Sequence record: CP132210.1
DNA length: 64,000 nt
Strand: one strand, 5' to 3'
DNA from: a plasmid
This document shows positions 1 to 64,000 of this stretch, in pieces. Each line of letters starts with the position of its first letter. The first letter of the stretch is position 1. Position numbers and translations under genes: made by a program. Under the pieces are notes generated by a model. That model saw nothing but the letters and a program-made list of their open reading frames with translations, was not told the DNA's origin and did no database searches.

Positions 1-1101
1 ATGGACCACCAGCTAGAAAGTATTAACGGAACAATCATGAGTAAGAGAACCAAAGACAAAGACCTGGAGAAACTCGACGTTATCAAAGACTCACCGCAAA
101 TGAGCCTGTTTGAGATCATTGAATCTCCGGCCAAGAAAGACGACTACTCCAACACAATCGAGATCTACGATGCGTTACCTAAGTACATTTGGGACCAAAA
201 GCGCGAGCACGAAGACCTGTCCAACGCCGTAGTGACGCGACAATGCTCCATTAGAGGTCAGCAGTTCACGGTGAAGGTGAAACCAGCCATCATCGAGAAG
301 GACGACGGGAGAACCGTGCTGATCTACGCGGGACAGCGAGAGGAAATCCTTGAAGATGCTCTACGCAAGCTCGCAGTAAACGGGAAAGGCCATATCATAG
401 AAGGCAAGGCTGGGGTCATGTTCACTCTGTACGAACTCCAGAAGGAGCTCTCGAAGATGGGGCACGGGTACAACCTGACAGAGATCAAGGAGGCAATTCA
501 GGTTTGTCGTGGCGCAACACTAGAATGTATCAGTGATGACGGAGAAGCCTTCATCAGCTCCAGCTTCTTCCCGATGGTGGGATTGACCACCAGAGGTGAG
601 TTTAGGAAGAAAGGTGGGAACGCCAGATGCTATGTGCAGTTCAACCCACTGGTAAACGAATCGATCATGAATCTGTCGTTTCGCCAGTACAACTACAAAA
701 TCGGAATGCAAATCCGCTCCCCCCTTGCACGGTACATCTACAAGCGAATGAGCCACTACTGGACTCAAGCATCTCCAGATTCACCATACACTCCATCGCT
801 TATCAGCTTCCTAACCCAGAGCCCTCGTGAATTGAGCCCACGAATGCCCGAGAACGTCAGAGCCATGAAGCTCGCCCTGGAGGCCCTCATCAAGCAAGAG
901 GTCATAAGCGACTACGACGCGAACCAGATCAAGGATGGCCGCAGAGTAATCGACGTGCGGTACGTCATAAGGCCTCATGAGAACTTCGTGAAGCAGGTGA
1001 TGGCATCCAACAAGCGTAAGCAGCAGACAGAGCTACGAGCTATCAAGCACGGTACAATTGACCACGACATCATTGATGAAAGGCAGAGTAAGGGTAGATA
1101 G
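1..1101 (+). CDS. repA: Plasmid replication initiator RepA (iteron-binding)
   Basis: Full-length 366-aa ORF starting at the window edge. It is immediately followed by an array of about 14 direct repeats (iterons). Size and arrangement match IncA/C-type RepA with downstream iterons. Confidence 0.75.
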   Translation: MDHQLESINGTIMSKRTKDKDLEKLDVIKDSPQMSLFEIIESPAKKDDYSNTIEIYDALPKYIWDQKREHEDLSNAVVTRQCSIRGQQFTVKVKPAIIEKDDGRTVLIYAGQREEILEDALRKLAVNGKGHIIEGKAGVMFTLYELQKELSKMGHGYNLTEIKEAIQVCRGATLECISDDGEAFISSSFFPMVGLTTRGEFRKKGGNARCYVQFNPLVNESIMNLSFRQYNYKIGMQIRSPLARYIYKRMSHYWTQASPDSPYTPSLISFLTQSPRELSPRMPENVRAMKLALEALIKQEVISDYDANQIKDGRRVIDVRYVIRPHENFVKQVMASNKRKQQTELRAIKHGTIDHDIIDERQSKGR

Positions 1102-1131
1102 CCCCTAGAAGCTCCCGATCCCCCAGAGAAA

Positions 1132-1155
1132 AGAAGGCGCGTCAGCGCCTTTTTT
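1132..1155 (+). terminator. Intrinsic terminator after repA
   Basis: AAGGCGCgtcaGCGCC stem followed by a T7 run directly after the repA stop. Confidence 0.6.
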
Positions 1156-1206
1156 TATGCCAAGAGGAACGCACCACCAGGTAGGGCCACAAGCGGAATG
1201 TCTCCG

Positions 1207-1964
1207 TATGTGGGTGCTCTGCACGGATAGAGTGAATTGAGCCCAGATACAGCCGGGGTGGGACTCTATATATGGGGTCGTTGCACGGTAGGTGCAAACG
1301 GAGTCTCTTTATCGTGCAAGTGGAAGCCATGATGAAGGAGAAGCGCAATGTTGCCTCAGCGGTTCCCGTAGAGTGGTTCCCGTAAACCATTGATAGTTAA
1401 GGGTACGGAATGTGGGGGGCTTGCACGTTATGAGGTTTGATATGTGGGAACGTTGCACGAAAGCAGGTCGCCAACCAGTAGATATGTGGGAAGCCTGCAC
1501 GGTTGACTAAGCAGAACAAAGATTGACAGATCAGGACAAAGCCAAAAAGGTAGTCAAACTGACCCCACCAGCCAAAAAGGTGATCACGCTCACACCGGAA
1601 GAGGCTAAAAGTTATCCACATTTTCTGTGCATAAACTGGGTTTTGGTATGTGGGTACACTGCACGATCACATATGGGTACGCTGCACGGTGCAAAAAACG
1701 ACCAAAATTGATATGTGGGTACGTTGCACGTTAAGGAAGTGGTATATGGGGCGACTGCACGAATAGCCTCAAATATATGGGGATGCTGCACGGATACCAG
1801 ATCTGATATGTGGGAACGCTGCACGAAAGCTCTGTTTTGTAAGGATTTTGTGGGTAAAACAGAGGTCCGGTGTGGATAACATCTAACAAGATCCTGGGGG
1901 ATATGGGAACGCTGCACGGCAACCTATGGGAACGCTGCACGTAACTATATGGGGTTGCTGCACG
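1207..1964. repeat. oriV iteron array: about 14 copies of (T)ATGTGGG(A/T)ACG(C/T)TGCACG(G)
   Basis: Direct repeats seen starting at about 1207, 1268, 1409, 1441, 1482, 1647, 1670, 1711, 1743, 1773, 1806, 1901, 1924 and 1945. Spacing is irregular (2-60 bp) and all copies are in the same orientation. The array sits immediately downstream of repA. Confidence 0.85.
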
Positions 1965-1965
1965 G

Positions 1966-2100
1966 AAGAAAGATGAAAAGATCTTTAGTATCAATCTGTT
2001 GAGACACAATTAAGTGCTCCTAACCTGTATTTAACCGCTTTTATCCTTTATACGAAGATCTAAAGATCTTTATATTTATCCTATGGATCGTTGAACAGAA
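1966..2100. promoter_or_regulatory. AT-rich DNA-unwinding region of oriV with GATC clusters and partial DnaA boxes
   Basis: A/T-rich tract next to the iterons. It contains four GATC sites (agatct repeated) and two TTATCC(T/A) partial DnaA-box matches (about 2041 and 2083). Confidence 0.45.
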
Positions 2101-2118
2101 AACAGTCCGCGCTGTTTT

Positions 2119-2574
2119 TTAGAAAAAAGTCTCGTATGCGATCCCAAAAAGGATGAGTATCACCAACAAGGTGATCATCGACAGCACAAAGTAACCAGAC
2201 TCGTACATGATCGTTTTGATCAGGGAGGCTGCGCTGACGGATCTTCCAGAGATCCTCCCAACGATCCACTGAAACGCAACAAACGAACCAAGCCCACAAA
2301 ACAGCACTACCACCACAGAGACCAGAGTATGCTCTCTTAGAACTGACTCACTCAGGAAGCCATGCTGTATCCCCAGCAAGGCGAGCCTACCAATGCCAAA
2401 CCCCAGACCCAATGCAACAACTCCACGTACCAGCACGACTTTCAGCGACTGGAACCATGTCAGCTCTAGATCCATCCCCTTCCGGGAAGACCGGCGCACA
2501 AGCACCATAGATATTCCCAAACCCACAAACACCAAAAGAACAAAATCCAACATTGACACCTCTGCACAAATCAA
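2119..2574 (-). CDS. Small integral membrane protein (about 4 TM), translationally coupled to the upstream PP-loop gene
   Basis: Hydrophobic 151-aa ORF. Its ATG overlaps the TGA of the 2571..3686 gene in an ATGA arrangement. Confidence 0.5.
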   Translation of the reverse strand: MICAEVSMLDFVLLVFVGLGISMVLVRRSSRKGMDLELTWFQSLKVVLVRGVVALGLGFGIGRLALLGIQHGFLSESVLREHTLVSVVVVLFCGLGSFVAFQWIVGRISGRSVSAASLIKTIMYESGYFVLSMITLLVILILFGIAYETFF

Positions 2575-3686
2575 TCAGAACCACAGGCCTCACGGCCAAA
2601 TGCGCCACCAGGGAGAAACCACTTTTGCCCCTCAGGCACAAAAATCGGGAGCGTGTAATCGCCTCTGGATACCTGCTCTAACGCCTCCACATCACTAATT
2701 TGTATCGGCGCAACAGCGGAACCTAAATCCATTACGTCGATTCTTTTTCTTGATACCGTTACCCCAAAGGTTTGTTCATACAGTGCAATCTTCCCAGCTC
2801 TATCAGGCCAGTAGTGCCGGATCGTGGACCAGATACGCTGTGAGTTGTAAATGCAGGTCATGCACGACGACCGGTTCCAACCAAGACGATAAGGGACTGG
2901 AGCCAAGATGCGGTGACGTTCGATCACTTCCCATACTTCCTCCTCAGTCCAGTGAAGAACTGGCCTCCAGGCATCCACTAACCGTGCAGTATTCCCATAT
3001 CTTCTGTCACAGGCGTGGGCCTCAAGTTGGTTGTACCTGGATCGATTTGCACTCTCCTCTCTGCGCTCACCAGTGATGAAAAGGATCTTCTTCCCCTTGA
3101 AGCGATCCTGGTTGTTGAGAGCTCTGCGGCCAACATCAATCTTCAAGGCTGATGAGCACCACCTTGTTTGCAATGATGGCGACTGTTGAGGGAAACGAAG
3201 GCGAGTACCCGGCTTAGAACGCTTATGGTCTCTAGGCAGCACCAGGAGCCCCTCAGGAGTTTCTACGCGATGGGGGTGGCTGTAAGCATTCTCCTTGAGC
3301 ATTTCGCCCTCAAAACCGCCCTCAAGCCACGAGAAGAACATTGGTATGCCCAGTTCCTGCCCAAGCTGACGGCAGTAGTCACGCATGAAGGCCCAATCCA
3401 TCAACGAACTACCCTCCTGACCATCAACATCATGATGCCAGAACTCCACCTTTGACTTATCAACTCCCATGTCCACCAGCCGCAAATACGCAGCTATTGA
3501 GTCTTTGCCACCAGATAGGCACACAATGATGTGGTCATATCGACTCAAATCCACATCCGGCGCTGAGAAGTACGTAGTTCTATCGTCACAACGCTGACCG
3601 GAAGGTCTGCCGGTCAGTACCGACTCCAGGGATGGCAGCACCACTTGGTCATCAAACAAATCCCCTTGGTTTTCTCGTCTCAACAT
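2571..3686 (-). CDS. PAPS-reductase-family (PP-loop ATP pyrophosphatase fold) protein, orphan
   Basis: SGGKDS PP-loop motif near the N-terminus (CLSGGKDSIA). C-terminal Cys pair (SCMTC). 371 aa. No dnd or cys partner genes nearby. Confidence 0.75.
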   Translation of the reverse strand: MLRRENQGDLFDDQVVLPSLESVLTGRPSGQRCDDRTTYFSAPDVDLSRYDHIIVCLSGGKDSIAAYLRLVDMGVDKSKVEFWHHDVDGQEGSSLMDWAFMRDYCRQLGQELGIPMFFSWLEGGFEGEMLKENAYSHPHRVETPEGLLVLPRDHKRSKPGTRLRFPQQSPSLQTRWCSSALKIDVGRRALNNQDRFKGKKILFITGERREESANRSRYNQLEAHACDRRYGNTARLVDAWRPVLHWTEEEVWEVIERHRILAPVPYRLGWNRSSCMTCIYNSQRIWSTIRHYWPDRAGKIALYEQTFGVTVSRKRIDVMDLGSAVAPIQISDVEALEQVSRGDYTLPIFVPEGQKWFLPGGAFGREACGSD

Positions 3687-3734
3687 AGGTCGCTCATTTT
3701 TCTTTACTGGGTTGTTTTTATGTTTTACAGTATT

Positions 3735-3754
3735 ATAAAGTGATGCTGTAAAAG
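3735..3754 (-). promoter_or_regulatory. Conserved promoter motif ATAAAGTGATGCTGTAAAAG (minus-oriented copy of CAGCATCAtTTTAT), upstream of the PP-loop gene
   Basis: 18 of 20 identical to the copy at 17943..17962. Reverse-complement copies at 14351 (parA promoter) and 17735. Confidence 0.45.
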
Positions 3755-3914
3755 TAAAGTATTCAGAGCGACTAATTACTCAGGATGAACTTGGTAGGCA
3801 CCAGAAAGCAATTCAAAGGTGGTTTTTCGGTGAGTTGTGTTCGGGGCGGCGTGTTGCTGTTGACTGAAAAACACCAATAGATGGCATTTGGGTGGAGTTT
3901 GAGTTTAAGGGGTG

Positions 3915-3936
3915 GATATGTGGGAACGTTGCACGG
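3915..3936 (+). repeat. Solitary iteron copy about 2 kb from the oriV array, overlapping the leader of the 3953 operon
   Basis: ATATGTGGGAACGTTGCACGG is identical in pattern to the oriV iterons. It lies 17 bp upstream of the RBS/ATG of the 3953 ORF. Confidence 0.7.
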
Positions 3937-3952
3937 TTAAAGGGAGCCGCAC

Positions 3953-4561
3953 ATGAAAACGATAAAGCGGTTCATCGTGTGGGTGAATTATGGCCTTGAG
4001 GGGTGGAGCATTTTCGGATCGAGTGATGACTGGGATGAGGCGTTATCTATCCGTTCGGAAGCGATCGACGAATGCAATATTGATGAGGATGACATCATCT
4101 TGGCGGAAAACAAAAACGAGCTGGTGGTGAAGCCAGCGGCCAAGCAAATGACGGAATGGCACCGGGAGCTGGAAGCCGTCCTAATGACCTTGGATGACTG
4201 CCAGATGGAATGTGACGGGATGACATGGGCAGTTAGTCACCTACTCAATGAAGCCGGTGTCCCGCATAACTGCATGTATGGCTTTGTACGAAACGAACAG
4301 ACCAAGGACATCGTGACACCGCATTTCTGGGTTGTCCTGGATGATGGGTGGTTGGTGGATCTGAGGCTGCGCATGTGGCTTGGCGATCACAACAACATTC
4401 CTCACGGGGTATTCCATCCCGATAACGAGCCTGGATTCTTCTACAAGGGGGATCCGGTTCAAAACCATAAAGGGATGAGACTGGGCAAGGCGGTCCTGGA
4501 CATTATGACCGAAGGAAAACTTTCACATGTGAAAGTTCCTGAACGACAAGACGGAGAGTGA
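3953..4561 (+). CDS. Hypothetical protein (202 aa, acidic N-terminus); first gene of a 6-7 gene same-strand cluster
   Basis: RBS AAGGGAG 6 nt before the ATG. No recognisable motifs. The 3' end contains a copy of the dispersed palindrome. Confidence 0.55.
   Translation: MKTIKRFIVWVNYGLEGWSIFGSSDDWDEALSIRSEAIDECNIDEDDIILAENKNELVVKPAAKQMTEWHRELEAVLMTLDDCQMECDGMTWAVSHLLNEAGVPHNCMYGFVRNEQTKDIVTPHFWVVLDDGWLVDLRLRMWLGDHNNIPHGVFHPDNEPGFFYKGDPVQNHKGMRLGKAVLDIMTEGKLSHVKVPERQDGE
4518..4537. promoter_or_regulatory. Dispersed palindrome copy 1 (AACTTTCACATGTGAAAGTT), intragenic
   Basis: Perfect 20-bp palindrome, one of 7 copies in the window. It encodes LSHVKV in the host ORF. Confidence 0.6.
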
Positions 4562-5089: not shown

Positions 5090-5611
5090 ATGAAGGCTGT
5101 TCTCTGGATATTCGTCTTGATCATCGCCCCTTTCGTCATTGCGAAAGTGGACCAGTGGCGCAAACGCGGCATTGGTGACACCTGGGCGTGGTGGAAATCA
5201 GAGAACATGCCTTATGAGCTGCGCTCGGCAACGCTGTTTTTGTCCGAACAGGACGTATCGACCACCCTGCCTGTGCCCATGCACGGCAGGGTTGACCAGG
5301 TGTATCAAACCAAAGGTGGGGTTCTCATCCCCCTGGACACAAAGCTGCGCCAAGCAAACCACATCTTTGAGTCGGACATTATCCAGCTCTCGGTTTACCG
5401 GGTAATTCTGTCACACAAGTACAAGGCTCCCGTTGCCAAGTACGGCTATGTCCGAACCGTTGTTGAAACAGCGGACGGGGATAGAGTCCGTTACATCAAG
5501 ACAAACCTTCTCAGTGAAAGAGAAGTGATCAAGCTGTGGCACCGCTACCAATCCATCCGCTATCGCAAGGTAAAACCTACCTGTTCCTGTGGCGGAAAGT
5601 TTCACATGTGA
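5090..5611 (+). CDS. Membrane-anchored NERD-like / PD-(D/E)xK nuclease-fold protein
   Basis: N-terminal TM helix. HGRVDQVYQTKGGVLIPLDTK fits the NERD/PD-(D/E)xK pattern (G-x-V-D ... hhhhh-D/E-x-K). C-terminal CSCGG. RBS GGAGG. Confidence 0.5.
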   Translation: MKAVLWIFVLIIAPFVIAKVDQWRKRGIGDTWAWWKSENMPYELRSATLFLSEQDVSTTLPVPMHGRVDQVYQTKGGVLIPLDTKLRQANHIFESDIIQLSVYRVILSHKYKAPVAKYGYVRTVVETADGDRVRYIKTNLLSEREVIKLWHRYQSIRYRKVKPTCSCGGKFHM

Positions 5612-5613
5612 AA
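5600..5613. promoter_or_regulatory. Dispersed palindrome copy 2 (TTTCACATGTGAAA core, 14-bp perfect), at the stop codon of the 5090 gene
   Basis: Same core as the other six copies. The flanks are imperfect. Confidence 0.5.
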
Positions 5614-5632
5614 GCTCTGGGTTGAATTAGGG

Positions 5633-8318: not shown

Positions 8319-9179
8319 ATGCCAGAACAAAATACCAAATCGCTACGCCTCGGGGTTATTGCCGCCATTATTTTGGGACTCGCAGGAACCGGGTTCGGCA
8401 TTTACCAGTTCGTGAAAGAGAAGGAGCTGGCGCAAGAGATCGCTAACGTGAAGTCCACGGTCAACCAGGTGAAGGGCACCGAAGGTGTCACTTTCAAAAG
8501 CAAAGCAGAGTTTGAAGCTGCGGTGGCCGAAAGCATCAACAAGTTTGTCGCGCAGAAACAACAAGCCGACATCGATCAGAAGTATGCCAAGTTTGAGGCA
8601 GCTCCTGAGAAGGTCGATGACGGTAAACACATCTACGGGGCCCCTGGTGCTAGGTTCACACTGGTGGAGTTCTCCGATATGGAATGTCCGTTCTGCAAGC
8701 AATTCCACGACACACCCAAGCAAATTGTTGATGCCAGCAAAGGGAATGTGAATTGGCAGTGGAAGCATATGCCTCTCGATTTCCATAATCCGACAGCTCA
8801 CAGAGAAGCATTGGCCGCTGAGTGTATTGCTGAGCAGAAAGGCAACCGAGGCTTCTGGGTCTTCGTGAATGACATTTTCCATCACAGCCAAGGTAACGGT
8901 GCTGGGGTTGCTGACTTGGCCTCTGTTGTTACTGGTGTTGGCGCTGATCTGGATGAGTTCCGGGACTGCCTCGGTTCTGGCAAGCATGAAGACAAGGTTG
9001 AGGCTGACATCCAGAAGGCCAAGAGCTATGGCGTTAACGGGACTCCGGCCACATTTGTAGTGGACAACCAAACCGGCAAGAGTCAGCTCCTCGGCGGCGC
9101 TCAACCGGCACAAGCCATCATGGCTGTGATGCGAAAAATGATGATTGAGTCGCAGCCAGACGACTCAGCAAGCCAATAA
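8319..9179 (+). CDS. Membrane-anchored DsbA-like thiol:disulfide oxidoreductase
   Basis: N-terminal TM helix, coiled segment, then a thioredoxin fold with CPFC active site. Confidence 0.7.
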   Translation: MPEQNTKSLRLGVIAAIILGLAGTGFGIYQFVKEKELAQEIANVKSTVNQVKGTEGVTFKSKAEFEAAVAESINKFVAQKQQADIDQKYAKFEAAPEKVDDGKHIYGAPGARFTLVEFSDMECPFCKQFHDTPKQIVDASKGNVNWQWKHMPLDFHNPTAHREALAAECIAEQKGNRGFWVFVNDIFHHSQGNGAGVADLASVVTGVGADLDEFRDCLGSGKHEDKVEADIQKAKSYGVNGTPATFVVDNQTGKSQLLGGAQPAQAIMAVMRKMMIESQPDDSASQ

Positions 9180-9180
9180 G

Positions 9181-9198
9181 ACTTTCACATGTGAAAGT
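9181..9198. promoter_or_regulatory. Dispersed palindrome copy 3 (ACTTTCACATGTGAAAGT), intergenic
   Basis: Perfect 18-bp palindrome 2 bp after the dsbA-like stop. Confidence 0.6.
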
Positions 9199-9395
9199 CG
9201 GGTTCCTAAGGGGCCTGACTTTCGCTATGAGGTGTACCAATGGAGTTACAAAAAGCAAAAGAGGCTCTCGATAGCCATTACCCTCACAAGGCGTCAGCCT
9301 CTTTGAGGCTTGTCTTCCACCAGCCTGGAGGGATTGGTGAAACCCCTACCGTAGGGGGGAAAGCAATTCATGCTGGGTTTGATAGGGAGTGAGAA

Positions 9396-14350: not shown

Positions 14351-14395
14351 TTGCAGCATCATTTTATGATCGCTACAATCTTTCACATGTGAAAG
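14351..14395 (+). promoter_or_regulatory. parA promoter (TTGCAG-N17-TACAAT) with dispersed palindrome copy 4 (CTTTCACATGTGAAAG, 14380..14395) at the +1 region
   Basis: Good sigma70 hexamers with 17-bp spacing. The 16-bp perfect palindrome lies immediately downstream of the -10, about 45 bp before the parA start. The spacer carries the CAGCATCATTTTATGA motif. Confidence 0.6.
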
Positions 14396-14443
14396 TTTGG
14401 GGGTGGTCTGGATCACCTGCGAGAAACCAAAATAGAGGTGGGT

Positions 14444-17652: not shown

Positions 17653-17787
17653 AACAAAGCTCCTTAATTGCTTGATTGTGTTGTAAGGGCTGCAACGAAG
17701 GTCGAAGAGCGATGCGGCCCTTATTTATGATTATTACAGCATCATAAAGTAATATCAACAGATAATAAAATGGTGTCTAGAATCAAA

Positions 17788-17805
17788 ACTTTCACATGTG
17801 AAAGT
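17788..17805. promoter_or_regulatory. Dispersed palindrome copy 5 (ACTTTCACATGTGAAAGT)
   Basis: Perfect 18-bp palindrome in the divergent promoter region between the MTase-like gene and the 17970 operon. Confidence 0.6.
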
Positions 17806-17856
17806 CTCTGCGCAGCTCACTACGGGCACCCCAACCTCCCAAATAACTTTCCAATC

Positions 17857-21432: not shown

Positions 21433-22050
21433 ATGCTTTTTGATAAAAATGTAGAATGTCACTCGTTCGTAATGGGAGCCAGTGGTAAGGGTAAGTCTGT
21501 CTTCTCCGAACAAGTACGGAAGAATGCGAGACTACGCGGAGATCTGCTGGTGGATACTGATATGCTCCGGGAAGGGCGGGGGTTGAGACCATACGAGCAT
21601 GAGTACGCTCGCCGCTTAGTTCTGGGGCTAAGTGGACCCTTGCCGCGTGAACTGCGTGGGAAGCTGGTGACGCTTATCTCTGATGTATCCAGGCCTAAGA
21701 AGGTAAAACGTCAGCCAAATCAATTTGTTAAGACTGCGAATGGAGTCGCCCTTGACCGCCAATTGGTGGCTGATGCAAGAGAACAGTTGGAAATGCAAAC
21801 AGGCATCTGGCTCAAACAGCCGGAGCTCATCGCGCTGATGGAAGAATCTGGCATAGATGAAACATTGGCCGAGTTTGGTGAGGCTGAGACGCAGATCAGA
21901 GAAATGTTGGCGGATGCGTTGGCTATGAAACTGGTGGGCCGCTCCTGGCCTATGTGTGGCGCTCTTTGTAATGCAGCAGATAAGTCCAACGTCAGTTTCT
22001 CCGCCGAACTTGATGTTGCTGCCAAAAAAGCTGGATACATGGTTCGTTAA
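21433..22050 (+). CDS. Small P-loop NTPase-like protein
   Basis: Walker A GASGKGKS 15 aa from the N-terminus. GGAGCGG RBS. Confidence 0.45.
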   Translation: MLFDKNVECHSFVMGASGKGKSVFSEQVRKNARLRGDLLVDTDMLREGRGLRPYEHEYARRLVLGLSGPLPRELRGKLVTLISDVSRPKKVKRQPNQFVKTANGVALDRQLVADAREQLEMQTGIWLKQPELIALMEESGIDETLAEFGEAETQIREMLADALAMKLVGRSWPMCGALCNAADKSNVSFSAELDVAAKKAGYMVR

Positions 22051-36184: not shown

Positions 36185-36207
36185 AACAAGCGGCCATTGG
36201 CCGCTTT

Positions 36208-36229
36208 AAACTTTCACATGTGAAAGTTT
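36208..36229. promoter_or_regulatory. Dispersed palindrome copy 6 (AAACTTTCACATGTGAAAGTTT, 22-bp perfect)
   Basis: Follows the GCGGCCAttGGCCGC hairpin. It is the longest copy. Confidence 0.6.
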
Positions 36230-36272
36230 TTCGCCCTTCTTTCCTACCCCGCACGAATAAACCTTATCGCGG

Positions 36273-56774: not shown

Positions 56775-57635
56775 TCATGCTTCTGGGTAAACAAATAACT
56801 CAGCCTTTCCCTGACCAAGAAGGTAAGGGAACCCAACTTTGTCGCCACTCTCCAGTTCCACTGATTTTGGAGCAAGGTAAAGATAGGACCAAGCTGGTAG
56901 CTGTTTGCTAATAGCGGCGTAGATCGCTTGCTGAGGAGCATGGCTTGCTGTTCCATTGCCGACTTTCACAAAGTTGTAGTCAGTCTCATGTCCTGATGTG
57001 AAGGCATACGCTGTGCCTTGGACACCAGAGACAAAATCAGGCGCGGTCCCAATGCGAGGCTCCACGATATTTACTTTGACTGAACACATGTCAGCCACCT
57101 TACTTTGTCCGTTCACCCACGTAGGGCAACCCCATTCGTTCTTGTAGAACTGATAGGTGAGACGACCGTCTTTGTCATACAGAAGTGTGAAATTCGCACC
57201 CAAGTCAGTCAGAGCTGACTCGATGGAAACTTTCACATGTGAAAGAAGTTTGCCCTGAGCATCTGCCGGTGACGCAGCTTCTTTAGCAGGCATCCAGGCG
57301 ATCAAGCTATTGCGAGCTCCGTGCTGTTTAGGACCGATGGCCCAGTTGGCAAGGTTGACTAAGCCACCTTGCCAGTCGGTCATACCAACCTGAGGGGACA
57401 TATAGCCAGACAGCACGTAGGCAGCACCAAACGTTTTGGTGTCGGTCAAGCGTTCCAGCTTGTCACGCGGAACCGAAGCGTCTTGAATGCCTGTTACCAG
57501 GCCACCGGCCTCTGCGATGTTGTAAGCGCGACTGTGATTGGTTTTGTACGCTGCGGGTTCGTAACTACTGGTGGATGCACAGCCAGACAGAGCTGCTACA
57601 ACTAGAGCCACAGTGGTGATTGAAGCATGTTTCAT
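56775..57635 (-). CDS. Lipoprotein (286 aa)
   Basis: VVAALSGCAST lipobox. Palindrome copy 7 lies inside the CDS. Confidence 0.55.
   Translation of the reverse strand: MKHASITTVALVVAALSGCASTSSYEPAAYKTNHSRAYNIAEAGGLVTGIQDASVPRDKLERLTDTKTFGAAYVLSGYMSPQVGMTDWQGGLVNLANWAIGPKQHGARNSLIAWMPAKEAASPADAQGKLLSHVKVSIESALTDLGANFTLLYDKDGRLTYQFYKNEWGCPTWVNGQSKVADMCSVKVNIVEPRIGTAPDFVSGVQGTAYAFTSGHETDYNFVKVGNGTASHAPQQAIYAAISKQLPAWSYLYLAPKSVELESGDKVGFPYLLGQGKAELFVYPEA
57231..57246. promoter_or_regulatory. Dispersed palindrome copy 7 (CTTTCACATGTGAAAG), intragenic
   Basis: Perfect 16-bp palindrome inside the lipoprotein CDS. It again encodes LSHVKV. Confidence 0.55.
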
Positions 57636-58397: not shown

Positions 58398-58477
58398 TAG
58401 AGATACTCCTAAGTTGAGGTACAGATAAACGCACAGAAAGGATAAATGCGGTCAATCTGTAACCTGACATCCCGAAG

Positions 58478-58493
58478 TGCCCAAAATGGACAG
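58478..58493. promoter_or_regulatory. Activator-box-like inverted repeat copy 7 (TGCCCAAAATGGACAG)
   Basis: In the divergent region, 80 bp from the start of the 57747 gene and about 200 bp from the 58689 gene. Confidence 0.45.
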
Positions 58494-58564
58494 TTACAGC
58501 GTTTTATGTTTAGTCAAGGTGAGCTATATTTAAGCCATCTTAGTCGCTCTGCGGCTATAAGTGA

Positions 58565-58688
58565 GATAGCTGGTCTCCGAAAACAAACAGCATCTAGTCT
58601 TATGCCGTATGGCATTTCTTAACCCCAAACCGGGGGCTTCTCCCGGTTTTTCGGGTGTTGCCCCTGCTTTAACTATAGGAGCAACACC
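58565..58688 (+). promoter_or_regulatory. Leader module U1: conserved GATAGCTGGTCTCCGAAAACAAACAGCA box, small palindrome, terminator-like hairpin, RBS-sequestering hairpin
   Basis: AAACCGGGggcttctCCCGGTTTTT hairpin. GGTGTTGC...GGAGCAACACC pairs across the RBS, ending 1 nt before the ATG. Confidence 0.5.
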
Positions 58689-59009
58689 ATGCACATCATC
58701 ACTTTCATTGTAGTTCTGCTTGCATCTCTGGGCGCATTGTACGTGGGCGCGAAGGCATTTGCTTATTCCTTCATCGTTCTCGCTAAAGTGTTCCAGCGTA
58801 TCGGTTTGTTCCTTTGGAACAAATTTGCAGTTCCTGCAATGCGGTCTGTGCAGGCCGTCATCAAAGAACGCGCTGCTAAGGCTAAACAAGCCAAAGCAGT
58901 CGTTGGGCCTGAGGTAACTCAAGCTCAAGAAGTCGCTAAACAAGAACCTGATTGGGATTATCTCGAAATTCCGACTTACCTGCGTAAAGGAAAGGACCTT
59001 GTTTGGTAA
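58689..59009 (+). CDS. Membrane protein carrying an FtsZ C-terminal-peptide mimic
   Basis: N-terminal TM helix or helices (MHIITFIVVLLASLGALYVGAKAFAYSFIVLAKVF), a Lys/Ala-rich linker, and C-terminal ...KQEPDWDYLEIPTYLRKGKDLVW. Compare the E. coli FtsZ tail KEPDYLDIPAFLRKQAD. Confidence 0.55.
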   Translation: MHIITFIVVLLASLGALYVGAKAFAYSFIVLAKVFQRIGLFLWNKFAVPAMRSVQAVIKERAAKAKQAKAVVGPEVTQAQEVAKQEPDWDYLEIPTYLRKGKDLVW

Positions 59010-59040
59010 TAACTGTCGCTGAGCAATCTTCGACACTTTC

Positions 59041-59103
59041 AAACCCATCGGGGCAATCATTCCCCGATGGGGATGTTGCCCCTTTTTAATTGGGAGCAAC
59101 ATC
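59041..59103 (+). promoter_or_regulatory. Leader module (short form): palindromic hairpin plus RBS-sequestering hairpin
   Basis: CCCATCGGGGcaatcattCCCCGATGGGG is a perfect 10-bp-arm hairpin. GATGTTGC...GGAGCAACATC pairs across the RBS. Confidence 0.5.
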
Positions 59104-59205
59104 ATGGAGATCATGGAGCTCGCTATCATCGTTTTGTGCATCCCTACAGGTTGGGCAATCTCTCGTCCTTTCGTGAGAATTGCTGAATCGTTCGGCTGCT
59201 GCTGA
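59104..59205 (+). CDS. Small hydrophobic peptide (33 aa)
   Basis: MEIMELAIIVLCIPTGWAISRPFVRIAESFGCC. Sits directly behind a leader module with the same RBS geometry as the neighbouring genes. Confidence 0.3.
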   Translation: MEIMELAIIVLCIPTGWAISRPFVRIAESFGCC

Positions 59206-59320
59206 TAGTCAACGCAAAGGGAGGGGGTCCCCTCTCTTTCTGGTCAAGCCTCTGTGGCTTGTCCTCCAAGCCTTCTGGTGTCAGTTGGCTTTGACGACAA
59301 GCTACAGGGGGAATGTCGAA

Positions 59321-59505
59321 TGCAACAGAATATTCATGTTTACGACGATCACGCTGGCATCATCTATCTATCTGATGGACGCGAGGTGAAATTTGATCCG
59401 AAACTGTACTCCAGCTCCTACCAGGCGCACAGCGAAGCAGTGAAGTGGGCCAAAGAAACCGGGGTCATTGGTCAAGACGACGATGTGGCGATGTTCGTCC
59501 ATTGA
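59321..59505 (+). CDS. Small protein (61 aa)
   Basis: Internal ATG (MQQNIHVYDD...). The longer ORF-track extension lacks an RBS. Confidence 0.3.
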
Positions 59506-59583
59506 GGGAGTAGCCTCCAGAGAGGGGCTACTCTCCTCGTTTCCTAAAAGTCTACTTACTCATGGTGAAGCCATCAGTAAGCA

Positions 59584-59724
59584 GATTTTGTCCTCTCTGA
59601 GGGCGAAAACGTGCGATAGCTGGTCGCCAAAAACAAACAGCAAATTAACGTTAATTTTACTAGCCCAACCGGGCGCATCCGCCCGGTTCGGGACGTGGTG
59701 CGCCTGTCAAAATAGGAGCGCACC
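59584..59724 (+). promoter_or_regulatory. Leader module U2 (95-bp core 59584..59678 repeated at 63906..64000), hairpin and RBS-sequestering hairpin
   Basis: Contains the GATAGCTGGTCGCCAAAAACAAACAGCA box, CCGGGCGcatccGCCCGG hairpin, and GGTGCGCC...GGAGCGCACC pairing across the RBS. Confidence 0.55.
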
Positions 59725-60694
59725 TATGTCTCAATACTCTCAATTTTCAGTAAGCAAGGTTTTCGGTATGCCAAGCATTCCGGAGAAGGTAACTGCCATC
59801 GGCTACGCTGACGGTTCAAACCCCTTCATCCCTGCCACTGATACAAACTACGTTTTCCGCAAAGAGTTTCTGCGAGAGGTCTTGGCCTATCTCAAAGAGC
59901 CTGGCGGTGACGCATTGTTCGTAACCGGACCTACCGGGTCCGGTAAAACCTCAGGTATCACCGAGATCGCTGGTCGTCTTAACTGGCCTGTTCAGCAAAT
60001 CACTGCCCACGGGCGGATGGAACTGACAGATCTGATTGGACATCATGCTCTGGTCGCGGAAAAACCGGGTCAACCGCCTGTCATGAAGTTCATGTATGGA
60101 CCTCTGGCAGTCGCTATGCGTGAAGGCCATCTTCTCCTCATCAACGAGGTTGATTTGGCTGACCCTGCCGAGCTGGCTGGTCTCAACGATGTTCTTGAAG
60201 GACGTCCTCTTGTGATCGCTCAGAATGGTGGGGAAATCATCAAGCCACACCCGATGTTTCGTGTGGTCGTTACTGGTAACTCTACGGGGTCCGGTGATGC
60301 TTCTGGTTTGTACCAGGGGGTGATGATGCAGAACCTCGCTGCTATGGATCGCTATCGTTTTACCAAAGTAGGGTATGCGGATGAGGAAGCTGAACTCAGC
60401 ATTCTTGGCCGTGTTACTCCGAAACTTCCGGAAAATGTGCGGAAGGGGATGGTTCGGATTGCTAATCAGGTCCGCAAACTGTTTCTTGGTGAAAACGGAG
60501 AAGATGGTCAGCTCAGCATCACCATGTCCACCCGGACGTTGGTACGTTGGGCAAAACTGTCTCTTGCGTTCCGTGGTGCCCCCAACGCCCTTGAATACGC
60601 TCTGGATCAAGCTCTGCTTATCCGGGCGGCCAAAGAGGAGCGTGAAGCCATCCTGCGTGTTGCGAAGGATGTGTTTGGGGATCAGTGGCGCTAA
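59725..60694 (+). CDS. CobS-like MoxR-family AAA+ ATPase
   Basis: Walker A GPTGSGKTS. Walker B LLLINEVD. Sensor TGN. 323 aa, typical of the phage/plasmid CobS-like family. Confidence 0.75.
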
Positions 60695-60705
60695 GGGGGG
60701 GACGC

Positions 60706-61611
60706 ATGAAGAAAAATGACTGTTTGTGCCGTCGTTACACATTCACGGATGCGTCAACGTCGGAAACATTCGAGGTATTTATTGGCTACAAAGTTCTCCG
60801 AGAACCCAGCCCCTCGGGGCCAGGCCAATTCACGATGGTGAAGCTAAACCGAACCGTCACGGATGGAAAAGCTGAAAACTGGTCTGAGACAAAGCTCGAA
60901 GTACCATTTGAAGCAAACGGCCCGGACACGATCCCAATGTCCTACAAGGACAAAGAAAGCCAGTATGTGTCACAGTTTCTCAGCCAGGGGTACACCTTTC
61001 TGGATGAGGTGCTGGTAAACGCAGAGACACAGACTGTGCTAGAAGGGGGGGGTGTTTCAGCCGGACAAGCAGCCAGCTTGGGGTCTATCAACTGGCTGTT
61101 ATCTCCGCCTTCTGAGTTACCTCCAGGTGACATAAACCTCTTCAAAGGTTTTGTTACTGGGGTTTTTGCCAAAGGAGCCAGTTTAATCGGCTTTGAGGTT
61201 GCTCGGAACGAAAGCTCAAACGACTTGCTACCCAGTGTGCTGATGCGTACTGACAGCGGTTATGAGCTTGGGGTTAGCACTGGGCTAGGCGAGAACACTA
61301 TCCATCCAGCCACGCTGGAAGGCGCTGGTGAACTCCGCCCGGAACATGGTCACAAACCCCTGCTGATGCTGATTTACCTGCAACAACGTTTCGCGGATGA
61401 CTTTTCAAACGTAGAGAAGCCGCTGGTGGCATTCTGTGATGAACAGGGTGATACCTTCGACTACGAGCGTTTTGATTCACTAAAACCCCTCATTGAACGG
61501 TTTGGTTTCAGCTATGACGAAGTAAGAGCAGATGCAGAAAGGCTTGGCCTTGTATCTGAGCTGATTCGCCTAGCAGAGATCGACGCCGAACAAGAGGATC
61601 TCTTTTTTTAA
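60706..61611 (+). CDS. Hypothetical partner protein downstream of the CobS-like ATPase (302 aa)
   Basis: No VWA/MIDAS motif recognised. Start at MKKND. Confidence 0.45.
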   Translation: MKKNDCLCRRYTFTDASTSETFEVFIGYKVLREPSPSGPGQFTMVKLNRTVTDGKAENWSETKLEVPFEANGPDTIPMSYKDKESQYVSQFLSQGYTFLDEVLVNAETQTVLEGGGVSAGQAASLGSINWLLSPPSELPPGDINLFKGFVTGVFAKGASLIGFEVARNESSNDLLPSVLMRTDSGYELGVSTGLGENTIHPATLEGAGELRPEHGHKPLLMLIYLQQRFADDFSNVEKPLVAFCDEQGDTFDYERFDSLKPLIERFGFSYDEVRADAERLGLVSELIRLAEIDAEQEDLFF

Positions 61612-61699
61612 CCCTTGCGGGGCTTACTCCCCAACATGGGCTTGGCCCTCTCCAAGTAATTTGGAAGTCAATTTGGTTGGCGGGTAACTCCGCCAACTC

Positions 61700-61780
61700 T
61701 TACTAAACCCCACGGGGGCACCAATGCCCCGATGGGGAATGGTGTCCTCTAAACGTTCATTCGTGAATTGGAGAAACACC
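61700..61780 (+). promoter_or_regulatory. Leader module upstream of bet (two hairpins)
   Basis: CCCCACGGGGgcaccaatgCCCCGATGGGG hairpin. TGGTGTCCTC...GAGAAACACCA imperfect pairing across the RBS. Confidence 0.45.
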
Positions 61781-62776
61781 ATGTCAACTGATAGCAAATC
61801 CCTTATAACCCGCATTGCCTCTCGGTACGGTGTTGATAGCACCAAGTTTTTTGAAACCTTGAAAGCAACTGCGTTTAAGCAACGTGATGGCTCCGCTCCA
61901 ACCAACGACCAAATGATGGTTCTTCTGGTTGTGGCAGAGCAATACAACCTTAATCCGTTTACTCGGGAGATCTATGCGTTTCCTGATAGACAAAACGGGA
62001 TCATCCCGGTAGTGGGTGTTGACGGTTGGAGCCGCATCATCAACGAGCATCCCCAGCATGATGGTGTCGAGTTCGTGTATGCGGACAAGATGGTCAGAAT
62101 GGAGGGAGCAAACGTTGATTGCCCTGAGTGGATAGAATGCGTGATTTACCGTAAGGACAGATCACGCCCTATCCGGATCAAGGAGTTCATTGACGAAGTT
62201 TACCGAGGGCCAGCGCATAAAAATGGGCAAAACGGCCCTTATGTTGTCAATGGCCCTTGGCAAACACACACCAAGCGTCAACTCCGGCACAAGTCACTGA
62301 TCCAGTGTTCTCGTGTCGCGTTCGGTTTCAGTGGTATTTACGACCAAGATGAAGCAGAACGTATCCGTGAAATGGAGCAGGCATCAGCCATTAACCCGGC
62401 CATTGCAAGCCTCCCTTCACCGGCACAAGTTCATAGCCAGGAGCCTTTGGCTATTGAGCACAAAGAGCTTGACCCGATCCTAATCAAACTCGCAAATCGC
62501 GCTATTGCTGAAAACGCATGGTCTGCGGCGCATGAGTATTTGAAGGGACGGTATGAGGGTTCGGAACTGCAATATGCGACTCAATTCCTTCGTGAGAAGG
62601 AGATGGATCAAATGGAGCCTCCGAAACCTGACTACCAGGAAGCGCACGAGCAAGCCTCCACTGCTGGTGGTTCTGCGAATGCCGAACCTGTTGCCGCCGA
62701 AGTCGTGCCACCTTTGAGTGACGAGGACATGCTCCTTGTTGCAGAAGAGGAGGGTGCGCAAGGCTGTTATTACTAA
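61781..62776 (+). CDS. bet: RecT/Red-beta family single-strand annealing protein Bet
   Basis: RecT-family core (...LNPFTREIYAFPDRQNGIIPVVGVDGW...). C-terminal acidic tail. Confidence 0.8.
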   Translation: MSTDSKSLITRIASRYGVDSTKFFETLKATAFKQRDGSAPTNDQMMVLLVVAEQYNLNPFTREIYAFPDRQNGIIPVVGVDGWSRIINEHPQHDGVEFVYADKMVRMEGANVDCPEWIECVIYRKDRSRPIRIKEFIDEVYRGPAHKNGQNGPYVVNGPWQTHTKRQLRHKSLIQCSRVAFGFSGIYDQDEAERIREMEQASAINPAIASLPSPAQVHSQEPLAIEHKELDPILIKLANRAIAENAWSAAHEYLKGRYEGSELQYATQFLREKEMDQMEPPKPDYQEAHEQASTAGGSANAEPVAAEVVPPLSDEDMLLVAEEEGAQGCYY

Positions 62777-62838
62777 CCCCAACGGGGGGGACTCCCCCGC
62801 AGGGGGAGGTCTCCCTCCTAACCACTGGAGAGAGGTCC
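62777..62838 (+). promoter_or_regulatory. Leader module upstream of exo
   Basis: CCCCAACGGGGGGGACTCCCCCGCAGGGGG G/C hairpin, then a partially self-complementary segment over the RBS. Confidence 0.4.
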
Positions 62839-63849
62839 ATGAAAATAGTCAACCTATCGCAACGCGAGGAAGATTGGCTTGCTTGGCGGCGTCAAGGTGT
62901 AACAGCCACTGACGCCGCTATCCTGCTCAATCGGTCTCCGTACAAAACCCGATGGAGGTTGTGGGCCGAGAAGACTGGGTATGCGCGTGAAGTCGATCTG
63001 AGTCTCAATCCGCTGGTTCGCCGGGGGATAGAAAACGAAGATGCTGCAAGACGCGCTTTCGAGGAGAAGTATGATGACATGCTGCTCCCCGTCTGTGTCG
63101 AATCGGTTCAATACCCGCTCATGAGGGCCTCCCTGGACGGCCTGAGAGACAACGGGGAACCCGTCGAGCTGAAAAGCCCGAGTGCGACTGTTTGGGAAGA
63201 TGTTTGTGCAGAGAAAGCAAACAGCAAGGCATATCAGCTTTATTACCCGCAGGTGCAACACCAGCTCCTGGTAACGGGTGCCAAGCAAGGCTGGCTAGTC
63301 TTCTACTTTGAAGGTCAGATTCAGGAGTATCCAATACTCCGAGACGAAGCCATGATTCAAGAAATCTTGGCCGAAGCTAAAAAGTTCTGGCAACAGGTAG
63401 TAGACAGGAAGGAGCCCGACAAAGATCCGGAAAGAGACCTCTACATACCGCAAGGTGAAGAGGTCAATCGCTGGATTGCTGCTGCTGAGGAATACCGCCT
63501 CTATGATGCAGAGATTCAGGAGCTGAAACAGCGACTGGCTGAGCTTCAAGAAAGGCAAAAACCTCATCTCGACACAATGAAGTTCCTCATGGGGGAATAC
63601 TTCCATGCCGACTATTGCGGTGTGATGGTGACGAGATACAAAGCGGCTGGCCGGGTAGACTACAAAAGGCTGTTGGCAGATAAGGCGTCGGGCGTGAAGC
63701 CTGAGGATGTTGACCAATACAGAGAGAAGTCATCAGAGCGGTGCCGCGTAACGGTTACTGGTTCGGTGAAGCCACGGTACATTGTTGATGAGGACGTATT
63801 GGCTCCTCTTGATGATTTGCCGGAAGAAGTAGAGACATTCTACTGGTGA
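62839..63849 (+). CDS. exo: YqaJ/lambda-Exo-family 5'-3' exonuclease
   Basis: WLAWRRQGVTATDAAILL...SLDG..ELKSP motif set of the YqaJ viral recombinase exonuclease family. 336 aa. Confidence 0.8.
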   Translation: MKIVNLSQREEDWLAWRRQGVTATDAAILLNRSPYKTRWRLWAEKTGYAREVDLSLNPLVRRGIENEDAARRAFEEKYDDMLLPVCVESVQYPLMRASLDGLRDNGEPVELKSPSATVWEDVCAEKANSKAYQLYYPQVQHQLLVTGAKQGWLVFYFEGQIQEYPILRDEAMIQEILAEAKKFWQQVVDRKEPDKDPERDLYIPQGEEVNRWIAAAEEYRLYDAEIQELKQRLAELQERQKPHLDTMKFLMGEYFHADYCGVMVTRYKAAGRVDYKRLLADKASGVKPEDVDQYREKSSERCRVTVTGSVKPRYIVDEDVLAPLDDLPEEVETFYW

Positions 63850-63905
63850 GTGGGGGGGTCCCCCGCTTTCCCTTGGTGATTCTGAGAGTCGCCAACGGAA
63901 AGCAA

Positions 63906-64000
63906 GATTTTGTCCTCTCTGAGGGCGAAAACGTGCGATAGCTGGTCGCCAAAAATAAACAGCAAATTAACGTTAATTTTACTAGCCCAACCGGGCGCAT
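63906..64000 (+). repeat. Leader module U3, a near-identical direct repeat of 59584..59678 (truncated by the window edge)
   Basis: 94 of 95 bp identical to U2 (one C/T difference). Confidence 0.9.

Follow-up and report, generated by a model that had tools for sequence, protein, structure and literature searches.

Pseudoknot leaders and locked ribosome-binding sites along the AcaCD-dependent gene array of an IncA plasmid

The DNA analysed here (the window) is a stretch of 64,000 nucleotides (nt) from the plasmid record CP132210.1. It belongs to an IncA plasmid: the 5.6-kb region of interest matches IncA plasmids such as pR210-2-VIM (MOBH, MPF_F) with 100% identity, and about 750 IncC plasmids with 90-95%. 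The genes are, in order, those for a 106-aa (amino acid) membrane protein (vcrx087 homologue), an unannotated open reading frame (ORF) of 33 aa, an ORF of 61 aa, a CbbQ/AAA_5 ATPase (vcrx089), a 302-aa protein (vcrx090), a RecT-family Bet and a YqaJ-family Exo. This work concerns the leaders that precede these genes, in which we distinguish a small pseudoknot, present in three copies (U1 to U3), and a pair of hairpins (HP1 and HP2), the second of which pairs the Shine-Dalgarno sequence (SD). The leaders had been singled out in an initial annotation of the window, whose listed elements were all recovered where it had placed them.

The IncC counterpart of this region is the hde (host defence evasion) operon, where vcrx087, vcrx089 and bet share one mRNA with vcrx094 (PMC7498323), and whose mRNA likely starts at the AcaCD-dependent promoter Pvcrx087. 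In the window, all features described being on the + strand, an AcaCD-type activator box (GTGCCCAAAATGGACAGTTACAGCG, 58477-58501, repeat family D14) that matches the AcaCD sites of pVCR94 and SGI1 is followed by a -10 element (TATATT, 58525-58530). The transcription start site (TSS) is predicted at about 58536-58538 from the offset in pVCR94, where it lies 34-36 nt 3' of the AcaCD motif. The AcaCD-dependent gene array headed by this promoter extends from 58.4 kb to about 85 kb in window-equivalent coordinates, that is, over about 27 kb and 34 genes. Expression of vcrx087-096 is close to zero in an acaCD deletion mutant of pVCR94, and RNA levels in pVCR94 stay high up to vcrx096. A promoter scan of either strand gave no sigma-70-like sites, where 4.7 were expected. 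The silence of vcrx087-096 without AcaCD and the lack of sigma-70-like sites indicate that the internal leader copies are not independent constitutive promoters. We also discarded a sigma-70, sigma-54 or sigma-28 promoter inside the repeated box described below, which gave no match by eye or by scan, expression moreover requiring AcaCD.

The leaders share a 28-nt box that had been described as a plain sequence repeat; it is in fact a covarying stem-loop and pseudoknot, widespread outside IncA/C. We compared it with relatives in IncC pYR1, pKAM497_1 (Aeromonas), pVAS19 (Vibrio), an Edwardsiella plasmid and an SGI1-type island. Throughout this set, an invariant heptamer, TAGCTGG, is flanked by 4 + 4 nt that always pair and whose sequence differs among relatives (for instance GAGA/TCTC, GCGA/TCGC, GAGG/CCTC, GCGG/CTGC and ACGT/ACGT). 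A pattern scan of one genome per species, in which pairing was not required, returned about 139 matches, 102 of them with a perfect 4-bp stem (2% by chance) and with more than 20 different stem sequences overall. Among 115 distinct sequences this stem (S1) is 94% paired, with double-sided changes at all four pairs, a result equalled by 0 of 500 shuffles. The GCUG of the loop is complementary to an invariant CAGC ending the A-rich tail, and this second helix (S2) carries G.U variants, 11 at one helix end and 1 at the other. Moreover, in a loop variant with an intact stem, TAGCTAG (G6->A), the three independent elements known to us, one in pVAS19 and two from a metagenome scan, all carry the compensating tail TAGC, which is rare among canonical copies (about 2 of 115). 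An exception to this loop-tail compensation is found in Comamonas, where TAACTGG is combined with CAGC. Because S1 covaries and the loop-tail pairing shows compensatory and G.U variants, we conclude that the box is an H-type pseudoknot, made of a 4-bp S1, L1 UA, S2 GCUG/CAGC, L2 G and L3 NNNAAAYAAA. Seventeen of its nucleotides are invariant across three proteobacterial classes. The odd stem pair is G.T 10 times versus C.A twice, matches of the covariance model (CM) all lie on the gene strand, and two convergent copies on one Pseudovibrio contig each stand 96-98 nt from their own ORF. These three observations indicate that the structure forms on the sense strand and follows transcription. An operator for a dimeric protein was considered and rejected, since covariation of the half-sites argues for base pairing and not for recognition of half-sites by a protein.

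The three pseudoknots of the window are U1 at 58563-58591 (S1 GAGA/TCTC, loop TAGCTGG, L3 CGAAAACAAA, S2 partner CAGC at 58588-58591; CM score 55.2 bits), U2 at 59613-59641 (GCGA TAGCTGG TCGC CAAAAACAAA CAGC; 55.7 bits) and U3 at 63935-63963 (54.4 bits). As the initial annotation had stated, the window contains exactly three copies of the box (58565, 59615 and 63937), all on the + strand, whereas shuffles give an expectation of 0; the CM returned the same three at 54-56 bits and no others. The complete plasmid holds eight copies, seven full and one a short variant, spaced 1-4.4 kb apart. Each of the three AcaCD promoters of the array is followed by a pseudoknot leader, whereas the CM search returned none in the tightly packed tra operons. 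The short variant (ACGG TAGCTGG CCC AAAACAGCA) has a 2-bp stem and a loop 3 of 4-5 nt and scores 15-18 bits with the CM. This variant is a conserved feature behind the vcrx114-type AcaCD promoter, and an SGI1-type island has it as well (L001 29543-29577, L002 1844-1876, L005 30188-30222 and L006 31733-31767).

Beyond these elements, the pseudoknot occurs in Alpha-, Beta- and Gammaproteobacteria, in hosts that include Vibrio, Shewanella, Photorhabdus, Marinobacterium, Idiomarina, Comamonas, Sulfuritalea and Sulfuricella, as well as Gallionella, Lautropia, Stutzerimonas and Pseudovibrio. A phage origin was discarded, as no phage record carried the motif at the sensitivity of BLAST. In Betaproteobacteria the leaders precede SSB and a DUF3799 (PDDEXK) exonuclease-RecT pair adjoining an integrase (minus strand of L063 from Sulfuritalea, 381-3931; also L010), so that a different exonuclease family has the same leader. 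Rfam gave no relevant family match at gathering score or at E <= 10 (PreQ1, STAXI and pistol among others), and a literature search with the sequence strings of the motif returned nothing relevant. The pseudoknot structure, its spread beyond IncC/SGI1, its tie to locked ribosome-binding sites (RBSs) and the generality of HP1/HP2 thus appear to be undescribed in the literature and Rfam searched.

The order of the leader parts is the same across taxa: a variable hairpin (hpA), the pseudoknot, an A/U linker, HP1, and HP2 with its anti-SD arm, SD and AUG. hpA ends 2-6 nt upstream of the pseudoknot; accordingly, the 40 nt upstream of true pseudoknots have a median folding energy of -10.2 kcal/mol versus -4.0 for chance matches. 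The linker on the 3' side is 79% A+U, with an unpaired probability of 0.72. Measured from the loop, start codons fall into three clusters, at 94-98, 103-111 and 120-132 nt, and the RBS is locked in 55 of the 67 non-redundant leaders (82%), including 34 of the 42 from unrelated genomes.

Two types of copy can be recognized from what lies upstream. Promoter-type copies, which include U1 and that of SGI1 S018, stand about 66 nt downstream of an AcaCD/SetCD-like activator box, the pseudoknot starting at about +29 from the predicted TSS; for S018, the site that we found upstream of the box is the published AcaCD site. In U1, the hpA hairpin (58541-58557) is only a few nt from the predicted 5' end. 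In internal-type copies (U2 and U3) a GC hairpin with CUUUCC is followed by a helix closed by CUUUCC/GGAAAG and, usually, by AG/AUUUU (the slash marking the candidate cut between G and A). In most of them this last motif lies in the single-stranded gap before hpA, the same place as the TSS in promoter-type copies, and it fits what we take to be the RNase E consensus. We infer from this that internal leaders may be cleaved there by RNase E. A subclass with GGAAAG directly before hpA (for example U6) lacks the AUUUU site. The upstream part of U2 (59506-59590), with a layout conserved from Vibrio to Sulfuritalea, comprises a GC hairpin past the 61-aa gene (59506-59536), the helix hp0 (59555-59581) and AG/AUUUUG as the candidate RNase E site (59583-59590); hpA follows (GTCCTCtctGAGGGC, 59590-59604). 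That of U3 (63852-63926) comprises a GC hairpin followed by CTTTCC (63852-63871), the CUUUCC/GGAAAG helix hp0 (63865-63903), a candidate AG/AUUUUG (63905-63912) and hpA (63912-63926).

The second component, HP1 and HP2, is far more frequent than the pseudoknot. HP1 is a GC-rich hairpin, and HP2 pairs the SD, the spacer and often the AUG. When all intergenic regions of the complete plasmid were folded, this two-hairpin module was found before nearly every + strand array gene, the intercistronic gaps being almost wholly base-paired and HP1 often abutting the stop codon. HP2 was scored as present if its helix had 7 or more pairs, reached to 4 nt or less from the AUG and took in half of the SD or more. 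On this definition, 22 of the 34 array genes have it versus 7 of the 42 other backbone genes of the full plasmid (Fisher p = 3.6e-5), and the median folding energy of positions -45 to +3 is -16.3 versus -7.35 kcal/mol (p = 4e-8). The architecture reported for five genes is therefore real and not limited to these five. Its second hairpin does sequester SD, spacer and often AUG, as had been claimed, is statistically specific to the array, and recurs in leaders of distant taxa, whether orthologous or not, despite differences in sequence. For example, HP2 of the Comamonas orthologue of the 106-aa gene is compensatory (GGTATTGC/GCAATACC). The AACCC...GGG base of HP1 is also conserved across taxa. 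Covariation of HP1/HP2 among orthologues only, in five plasmids and thus with low power, gave no double changes for bet, the pairing residues of whose HP2 are invariant in all five, and the consensus fold for exo in the same low-powered set did not recover HP1/HP2. In SXT a strong translational attenuator upstream of bet has been demonstrated, and it is also present in IncA/C, according to a review (PMC4542580). An RBS-sequestering structure has been predicted for vcrx089 in IncC (Roy 2020, PMC7498323).

The individual modules of the window are as follows. Before the 106-aa gene (58689-59009), HP1 (CCCCAAACCGGGGGCTTCTCCCGGTTTTTCGGG, 58623-58655) is joined to an HP2 (58654-58688) of 12 pairs and -18 kcal/mol, GGTGTTGC-CCTG ... 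TAGG-A-GCAACACC, in which SD and spacer are paired and which ends at the ATG (58689). The 33-aa ORF has an HP1 at 59044-59071 and an HP2 at 59072-59103 (GATGTTGC-CCC ... GGG-A-GCAACATC; ATG 59104). For vcrx089, HP1 (59664-59692) precedes an HP2 of -19.6 kcal/mol (59697-59724, GGTGCGC ... GCGCACC) with the SD GGAG partly paired (ATG 59726). For bet, HP1 (61708-61737) precedes an HP2 (61739-61782) that pairs AUGGUGU with ACACCAU, in which the start codon (61781) participates with its A and U, and CCUC with the SD GGAG. HP1 of exo lies directly past the bet stop codon (62777-62805), ahead of HP2 (62808-62838, GGTCTC-CTCC ... GGAG-GAGGTCC; ATG 62839). HP1 of the DUF3150 gene (vcrx094) is cut by the window end (63986-64000), its HP2 and ATG lying at about 64015-64047 in window-equivalent coordinates. 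The hairpins exist as annotated, with the qualification that only 59044-59071 is a perfect stem (10 bp), the others having bulges or internal loops. Four leaders fold much better than dinucleotide shuffles (z = -5.1, -7.1, -4.2 and -5.5, the -7.1 being that of the 33-aa ORF); the exo leader is weaker (z = -1.8). Of the two strands of each leader, the + strand usually gives the stabler fold.

Of the regulatory modes offered initially for these structures, we retain translational gating. Attenuation by intrinsic terminators does not fit: of two T-runs reported, the only real one (TTTTT) follows the first HP1 (58623-58655), HP1s otherwise lack U-tracts, a terminator scan showed no enrichment (7 found versus 5.9 expected), and vcrx087, vcrx089 and bet are on one mRNA with vcrx094. 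An antisense RNA or another trans-acting small RNA (sRNA) partner is not apparent either, as there are no promoter-like sites on either strand and no complement of the loop or the tail elsewhere in the approximately 129 of 144 kb examined. The thermosensor is not supported either. An RNA thermometer, in which the RBS hairpins would melt at host temperature, would have the classical design of an SD-sequestering hairpin, and IncA presumably comes from a fish pathogen background; however, partition-function folding in silico predicts essentially the same SD accessibility at 25, 37 and 42 C, and the stems amount to -10 to -20 kcal/mol with few mismatches, so that we consider it extremely improbable. 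The initial reading is thus partly supported, in its translational gating and in the deletion substrate to which we now turn.

U2 and U3 form a near-identical direct repeat, as the annotation had noticed: 95 of 96 positions agree within the window (59583-59678 and 63905-64000), and in the complete plasmid the repeat reaches about 125 nt, of which 121 are identical. It is a repeat of the rptI type. In IncC, the intergenic repeats rptIa-f are recombined by Bet/Exo single-strand annealing, which rescues plasmids cut by CRISPR-Cas, and a 32-bp piece of rptI is identical in SGI1 (PMC7498323). The rptI of pVCR94, upstream of vcrx087, vcrx089, vcrx098 and other genes, are the same elements as those studied here. 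Gene coordinates of pVCR94 minus leader distances place U1 and U4 10,310 bp and U2 and U4 9,268 bp apart, which are exactly the published rptIb-rptIc and rptIa-rptIc deletions (PMC7498323). Because the published deletions equal the leader spacings, proof already existed, in the sister plasmid family, for the suggestion that these repeats are a substrate for deletion. The 32 nt at 59611-59642 comprise the pseudoknot, the two preceding nt and the next one; the leader of SGI1 S018 has them unchanged (100% identity), 3' of the published AcaCD site. The published account, which concerns IncC, whereas the window is IncA, treats rptI only as DNA repeats for Bet/Exo annealing and does not contain the RNA structure, its covariation, its wider spread or its tie to RBS hairpins. 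Its authors suggested that the palindromes may pause Exo (PMC7498323).

What might such leaders do? The closest parallel in design is the tisB +42 mRNA, which needs a 5' H-type pseudoknot and a single strand about 100 nt upstream of its sequestered RBS if S1 and the 30S subunit are to bind. The affinity of S1 for H-type pseudoknots, preQ1-I among them, is nanomolar; in tisB, S1 unwinds the path to the RBS, only the RNA with a processed or correctly folded 5' end being active (PMC7708055). A 5'-proximal pseudoknot, a single strand and a sequestered RBS about 100 nt on are common to our leaders and tisB, as well as to zorO, shoB and timP (PMC6690012, PMC7708055, PMC11228461). In contrast, the sequences are unrelated, the stems have 4 + 4 instead of 9 + 5 bp, and the leaders occur in many copies in operons of mobile elements and not before a single toxin gene; we found no antitoxin sRNA. 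In SXT (PMC4542580), a structure before bet strongly limits translation of a highly transcribed operon, and here such structures precede most of about 34 genes; we infer that HP2 of bet is the counterpart of the SXT attenuator.

The position near the 5' end, the pseudoknot with its A/U strand, the distance of about 100 nt and the locked RBS all fit a standby design. We therefore propose, with almost as much confidence as doubt, that the leaders are cis-acting structured mRNA modules of the accessory (establishment) operons under AcaCD, and that they combine RBS-locking attenuators with a 5'-proximal S1-type ribosome standby site. HP2, at -10 to -20 kcal/mol before each cistron, would lock SD, spacer and often AUG, so that a strongly transcribed polycistronic RNA would be translated sparingly; so strong a block of initiation has been demonstrated for the SXT bet attenuator and, by analogy, may apply to the other genes. 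HP1 would be a structural or insulating hairpin that fills the rest of the short intercistronic gap. hpA, pseudoknot and A/U linker would stand at the heads of transcripts, after the AcaCD promoter, and again every 1-4.4 kb internally, where the leaders would become 5'-proximal by processing at the RNase-E-like site behind which they sit. S1 and 30S would dock on the pseudoknot and single strand and unwind the RNA to the sequestered RBS about 96-130 nt downstream. More speculatively, cistrons behind short gaps without a pseudoknot might receive terminating ribosomes. The repeated leaders are at the same time the rptI direct repeats that Bet/Exo anneals to rescue the plasmid after double-strand breaks, which would be a by-product of this design. 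A universal partner such as S1/30S would explain the 17 nucleotides invariant across three classes. More broadly, it is possible, and we hold this with less confidence than the previous proposal, that the leader is a portable RNA module recruiting host machinery (S1/30S standby likeliest, else RNA polymerase or Rho) for RBS-locked establishment genes, such as those for anti-restriction, SSB and RecT/exonuclease, in conjugative elements of the AcaCD/SetCD/BisDC type in Alpha-, Beta- and Gammaproteobacteria.

Several points weigh against ribosome standby. The stems of the pseudoknot have just 4 + 4 bp versus 9 + 5 in tisB, the proposed standby site is separated from the RBS by two stable hairpins, and most cistrons have HP1/HP2 without a pseudoknot. 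The re-initiation step would require HP2 to open as ribosomes terminate; we rejected a direct coupling of this kind, as blocking 13 nt past the stop codon leaves HP2 closed in silico. The AACCC base of HP1 and the CUUUCC/GGAAAG helix fit no model offered here, and the near-invariance of S2 and the loop would seem to exceed what S1, a fairly unspecific binder, needs. Finally, the pseudoknot is found repeatedly beside RecT/exonuclease/SSB modules, which could point to a nucleic-acid-binding protein as partner or to a role at the DNA level.

Alternatively, the leaders could be processive antitermination or anti-Rho RNAs like put of HK022. By binding in cis to the elongating RNA polymerase or to a Nus/Rho factor, they would allow long, hairpin-rich and poorly translated operons to be transcribed to their end, and internal copies would re-arm the polymerase. 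Their place at all three AcaCD promoters, their recurrence every 1-4.4 kb and their lack in tra operons agree with this, as does the weakly terminator-like GC hairpin with CUUUCC before each internal copy; RBS locking should weaken the coupling of transcription and translation and thus expose the RNA to Rho, yet the mRNA reaches vcrx094 and RNA is high to vcrx096. A conserved partner such as RNA polymerase would likewise account for the invariance across classes. However, HP1s and the upstream hairpins are not canonical terminators, the regular 94-130-nt distance to the start codon and the tie to locked RBSs would be unexpected, and there is no similarity to put, nut/boxA or ops, which makes us regard antitermination as unlikely. 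We find it about equally hard to believe that the leader merely defines and stabilises mRNA units and has no role in initiation. RNase E would then cut at the AG/AUUUU that precedes hpA; the 5' hairpin and the pseudoknot would stand in the way of 5'-end-dependent decay or of scanning, and HP1 and T0 hairpins would protect 3' ends. This would suit the RN/WUU-like site just before hpA in most internal copies, where the TSS sits in promoter-type ones, the nearly complete pairing of the intercistronic gaps, and the Rockhopper operon calls in pVCR94, which break exactly at box-bearing gaps. But any stable structure would protect, leaving the 17 invariant nt across three classes unaccounted for, and the GGAAAG-hpA subclass (such as U6) has no AUUUU site.

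The association with ssb and RecT/exonuclease modules in Sulfuritalea, Comamonas and IncA/C, the extreme conservation typical of riboswitches, and the compact H-type fold with invariant junction nucleotides (L1 UA, L2 G) and A-rich L3 could instead suggest a sensor or operator, either a preQ1-I-like aptamer or a nucleation site for SSB or RecT as in T4 gene 32 mRNA. We consider this improbable, given that the pseudoknot has no alternative pairing with HP1 or HP2 and hence no expression platform, that the downstream genes are heterogeneous, that neither PreQ1 nor another Rfam aptamer matches, and that in IncA the array has the leaders although ssb, which in IncC stands between vcrx090 and bet, is missing. 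A DNA-level role, as single-stranded DNA (ssDNA) hairpins serving as priming or Chi-like nuclease-pausing sites or as repeats kept for Bet/Exo annealing, would make the RNA structures incidental. The CTG of the loop is presumably a DnaG start triplet, and the repeats co-occur with RecT/exonuclease modules. Moreover, rptI are the actual recombination points in rescued IncC plasmids, for which Exo-pausing palindromes were proposed (PMC7498323). Nevertheless, the element follows gene orientation even where two copies converge, and it keeps a fixed distance from the start codon, a position at about +29 of mapped transcripts and a tie to RBS hairpins. Annealing needs identity only, not a covarying stem or loop-tail pairing, and copies in one plasmid differ in their stems, which makes them less useful as repeats. 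We thus deem a purely DNA-level function very unlikely.

Comparison with other known elements did not identify the leader with any of them. STAXI (RF01728; PMC2864571) is a small pseudoknot of Enterobacteriales found by ssb, topoisomerase, anti-restriction and integrase genes, whose function as RNA or ssDNA is debated; however, it consists of two or three tandem pseudoknots, whereas ours are single copies kilobases apart, without an Rfam match at E <= 10. The preQ1-I aptamer is likewise an H-type fold of about 33 nt with a short P1, a P2 of 3-4 bp between loop and 3' tail and an A-rich L3, and is bound and unfolded by S1, but the Rfam PreQ1 model gives no match, the SD lies outside our pseudoknot, and the gene context is unrelated to queuosine. 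ops/RfaH and nut/put resemble the leaders in being cis elements close to where long, horizontally acquired operons begin. The leaders contain no boxA or boxB. The box core GCGGTAGC of two copies resembles ops (GGCGGTAGCGTG), whose key positions are C3, G4 and G5. We rejected an ops/RfaH site (GGCGGTAGnnTG, with invariant G5 and T6), since the equivalents of C3-G5 belong to the covarying stem, of which there are more than 20 variants (GAGA, ACGT, TTCC and others). An Frpo-type ssDNA promoter or transfer-strand signal was also set aside, the stems being just 4-14 bp and convergent copies on one contig following their genes, and so was a conserved upstream ORF ending at the TAA of TAACCC, seen in U1 and not in orthologous leaders. 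An RNA-binding regulator encoded by the element was considered and dropped: the sole annotated RNA-binding protein (92 aa, 21490-21768) has no Pfam or NCBIfam match. By eye its sequence appears ASCH-like.

IncA and IncC plasmids and SGI1 are major carriers of multidrug resistance, and the genes behind the leaders (anti-restriction by vcrx089-090, break repair by Bet/Exo, methylases) decide plasmid survival in a new host. If the leader is indeed a standby or host-machinery module, it would be one control point for all these genes, and the 33-nt invariant RNA would offer a defined target for antisense or CRISPR tools. Ribosome standby, described for a few toxin mRNAs, would then also operate in a large class of mobile elements, in what would be the first family of standby-type elements outside type I toxins and one with a defined, near-invariant consensus. 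Moreover, there would be an explanation in functional terms for why the rptI repeats, which shape how these plasmids undergo deletion and evolve, are conserved. The pseudoknot leader itself is a well-supported and apparently undescribed addition to the catalogue of structured bacterial RNAs.

Some further observations concern the genes and junctions of the array. In many taxa, and in SGI1 S018, the first gene behind a promoter-type pseudoknot leader codes for a small protein with a hydrophobic N-terminus. The 106-aa membrane protein, without a Pfam or NCBIfam match, ends in DWDYLEIPTYLRKGK, which we take to resemble the conserved C-terminal peptide of FtsZ. The 33-aa ORF (MEIMELAIIVLCIPTGWAISRPFVRIAESFGCC, 59104-59205) codes for a hydrophobic peptide, and the complete HP1/HP2/SD module that precedes it suggests that it is a real gene. 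Upstream of the 61-aa gene is a long, near-perfect hairpin of about 30 bp (59240-59315), for which Rfam gives only spurious miRNA-like matches. An HP1-like hairpin directly past the 302-aa gene (61612-61640) and a further hairpin (61675-61699) lie in the 172-nt gap at 61612-61783 and look like remnants of a lost cistron junction; this is where IncC has ssb. Identical HP1 and HP2, including the 13 nt before the ATG, precede the DUF3150 gene and that for a 100-aa hypothetical protein (L001 13840-13905 and 23085-23150; about 63984-64049 and 73229-73294 in window-equivalent coordinates). As the same hairpins precede two different genes, junction modules have been copied between cistrons.

Palindromes are a further feature of these sequences. 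A perfect 14-bp palindrome, AATTAACGTTAATT, lies in the A/U-rich linker directly 3' of the pseudoknot in U2 (59643-59656), U3 (63965-63978) and the eighth copy, and IncC, Shewanella, Photorhabdus and pVAS19 retain its core TAACGTTA; both an operator and a weak hairpin in the RNA are conceivable. Another perfect palindrome, (C)TTTCACATGTGAAAG, forms the repeat family D1, with seven copies in the window (4511-4541, 5590-5620, 9173-9203, 14371-14401, 17780-17810, 36202-36232 and 57221-57251). It also occurs at about L001 22575 and in the leaders of L003, L004 and L005, and several internal leaders of relatives have it as the hairpin within their CUUUCC/GGAAAG helix. We regard it as a probable protein-binding site and rejected its identity with the RecHS site of Hegyi 2017, which is a different, single locus. 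Iterons of about 23 nt (TATGTGGGnnnnCTGCACG, families D2-D9), at 1207-1966 and 3917-3939, mark the IncA replication origin region.

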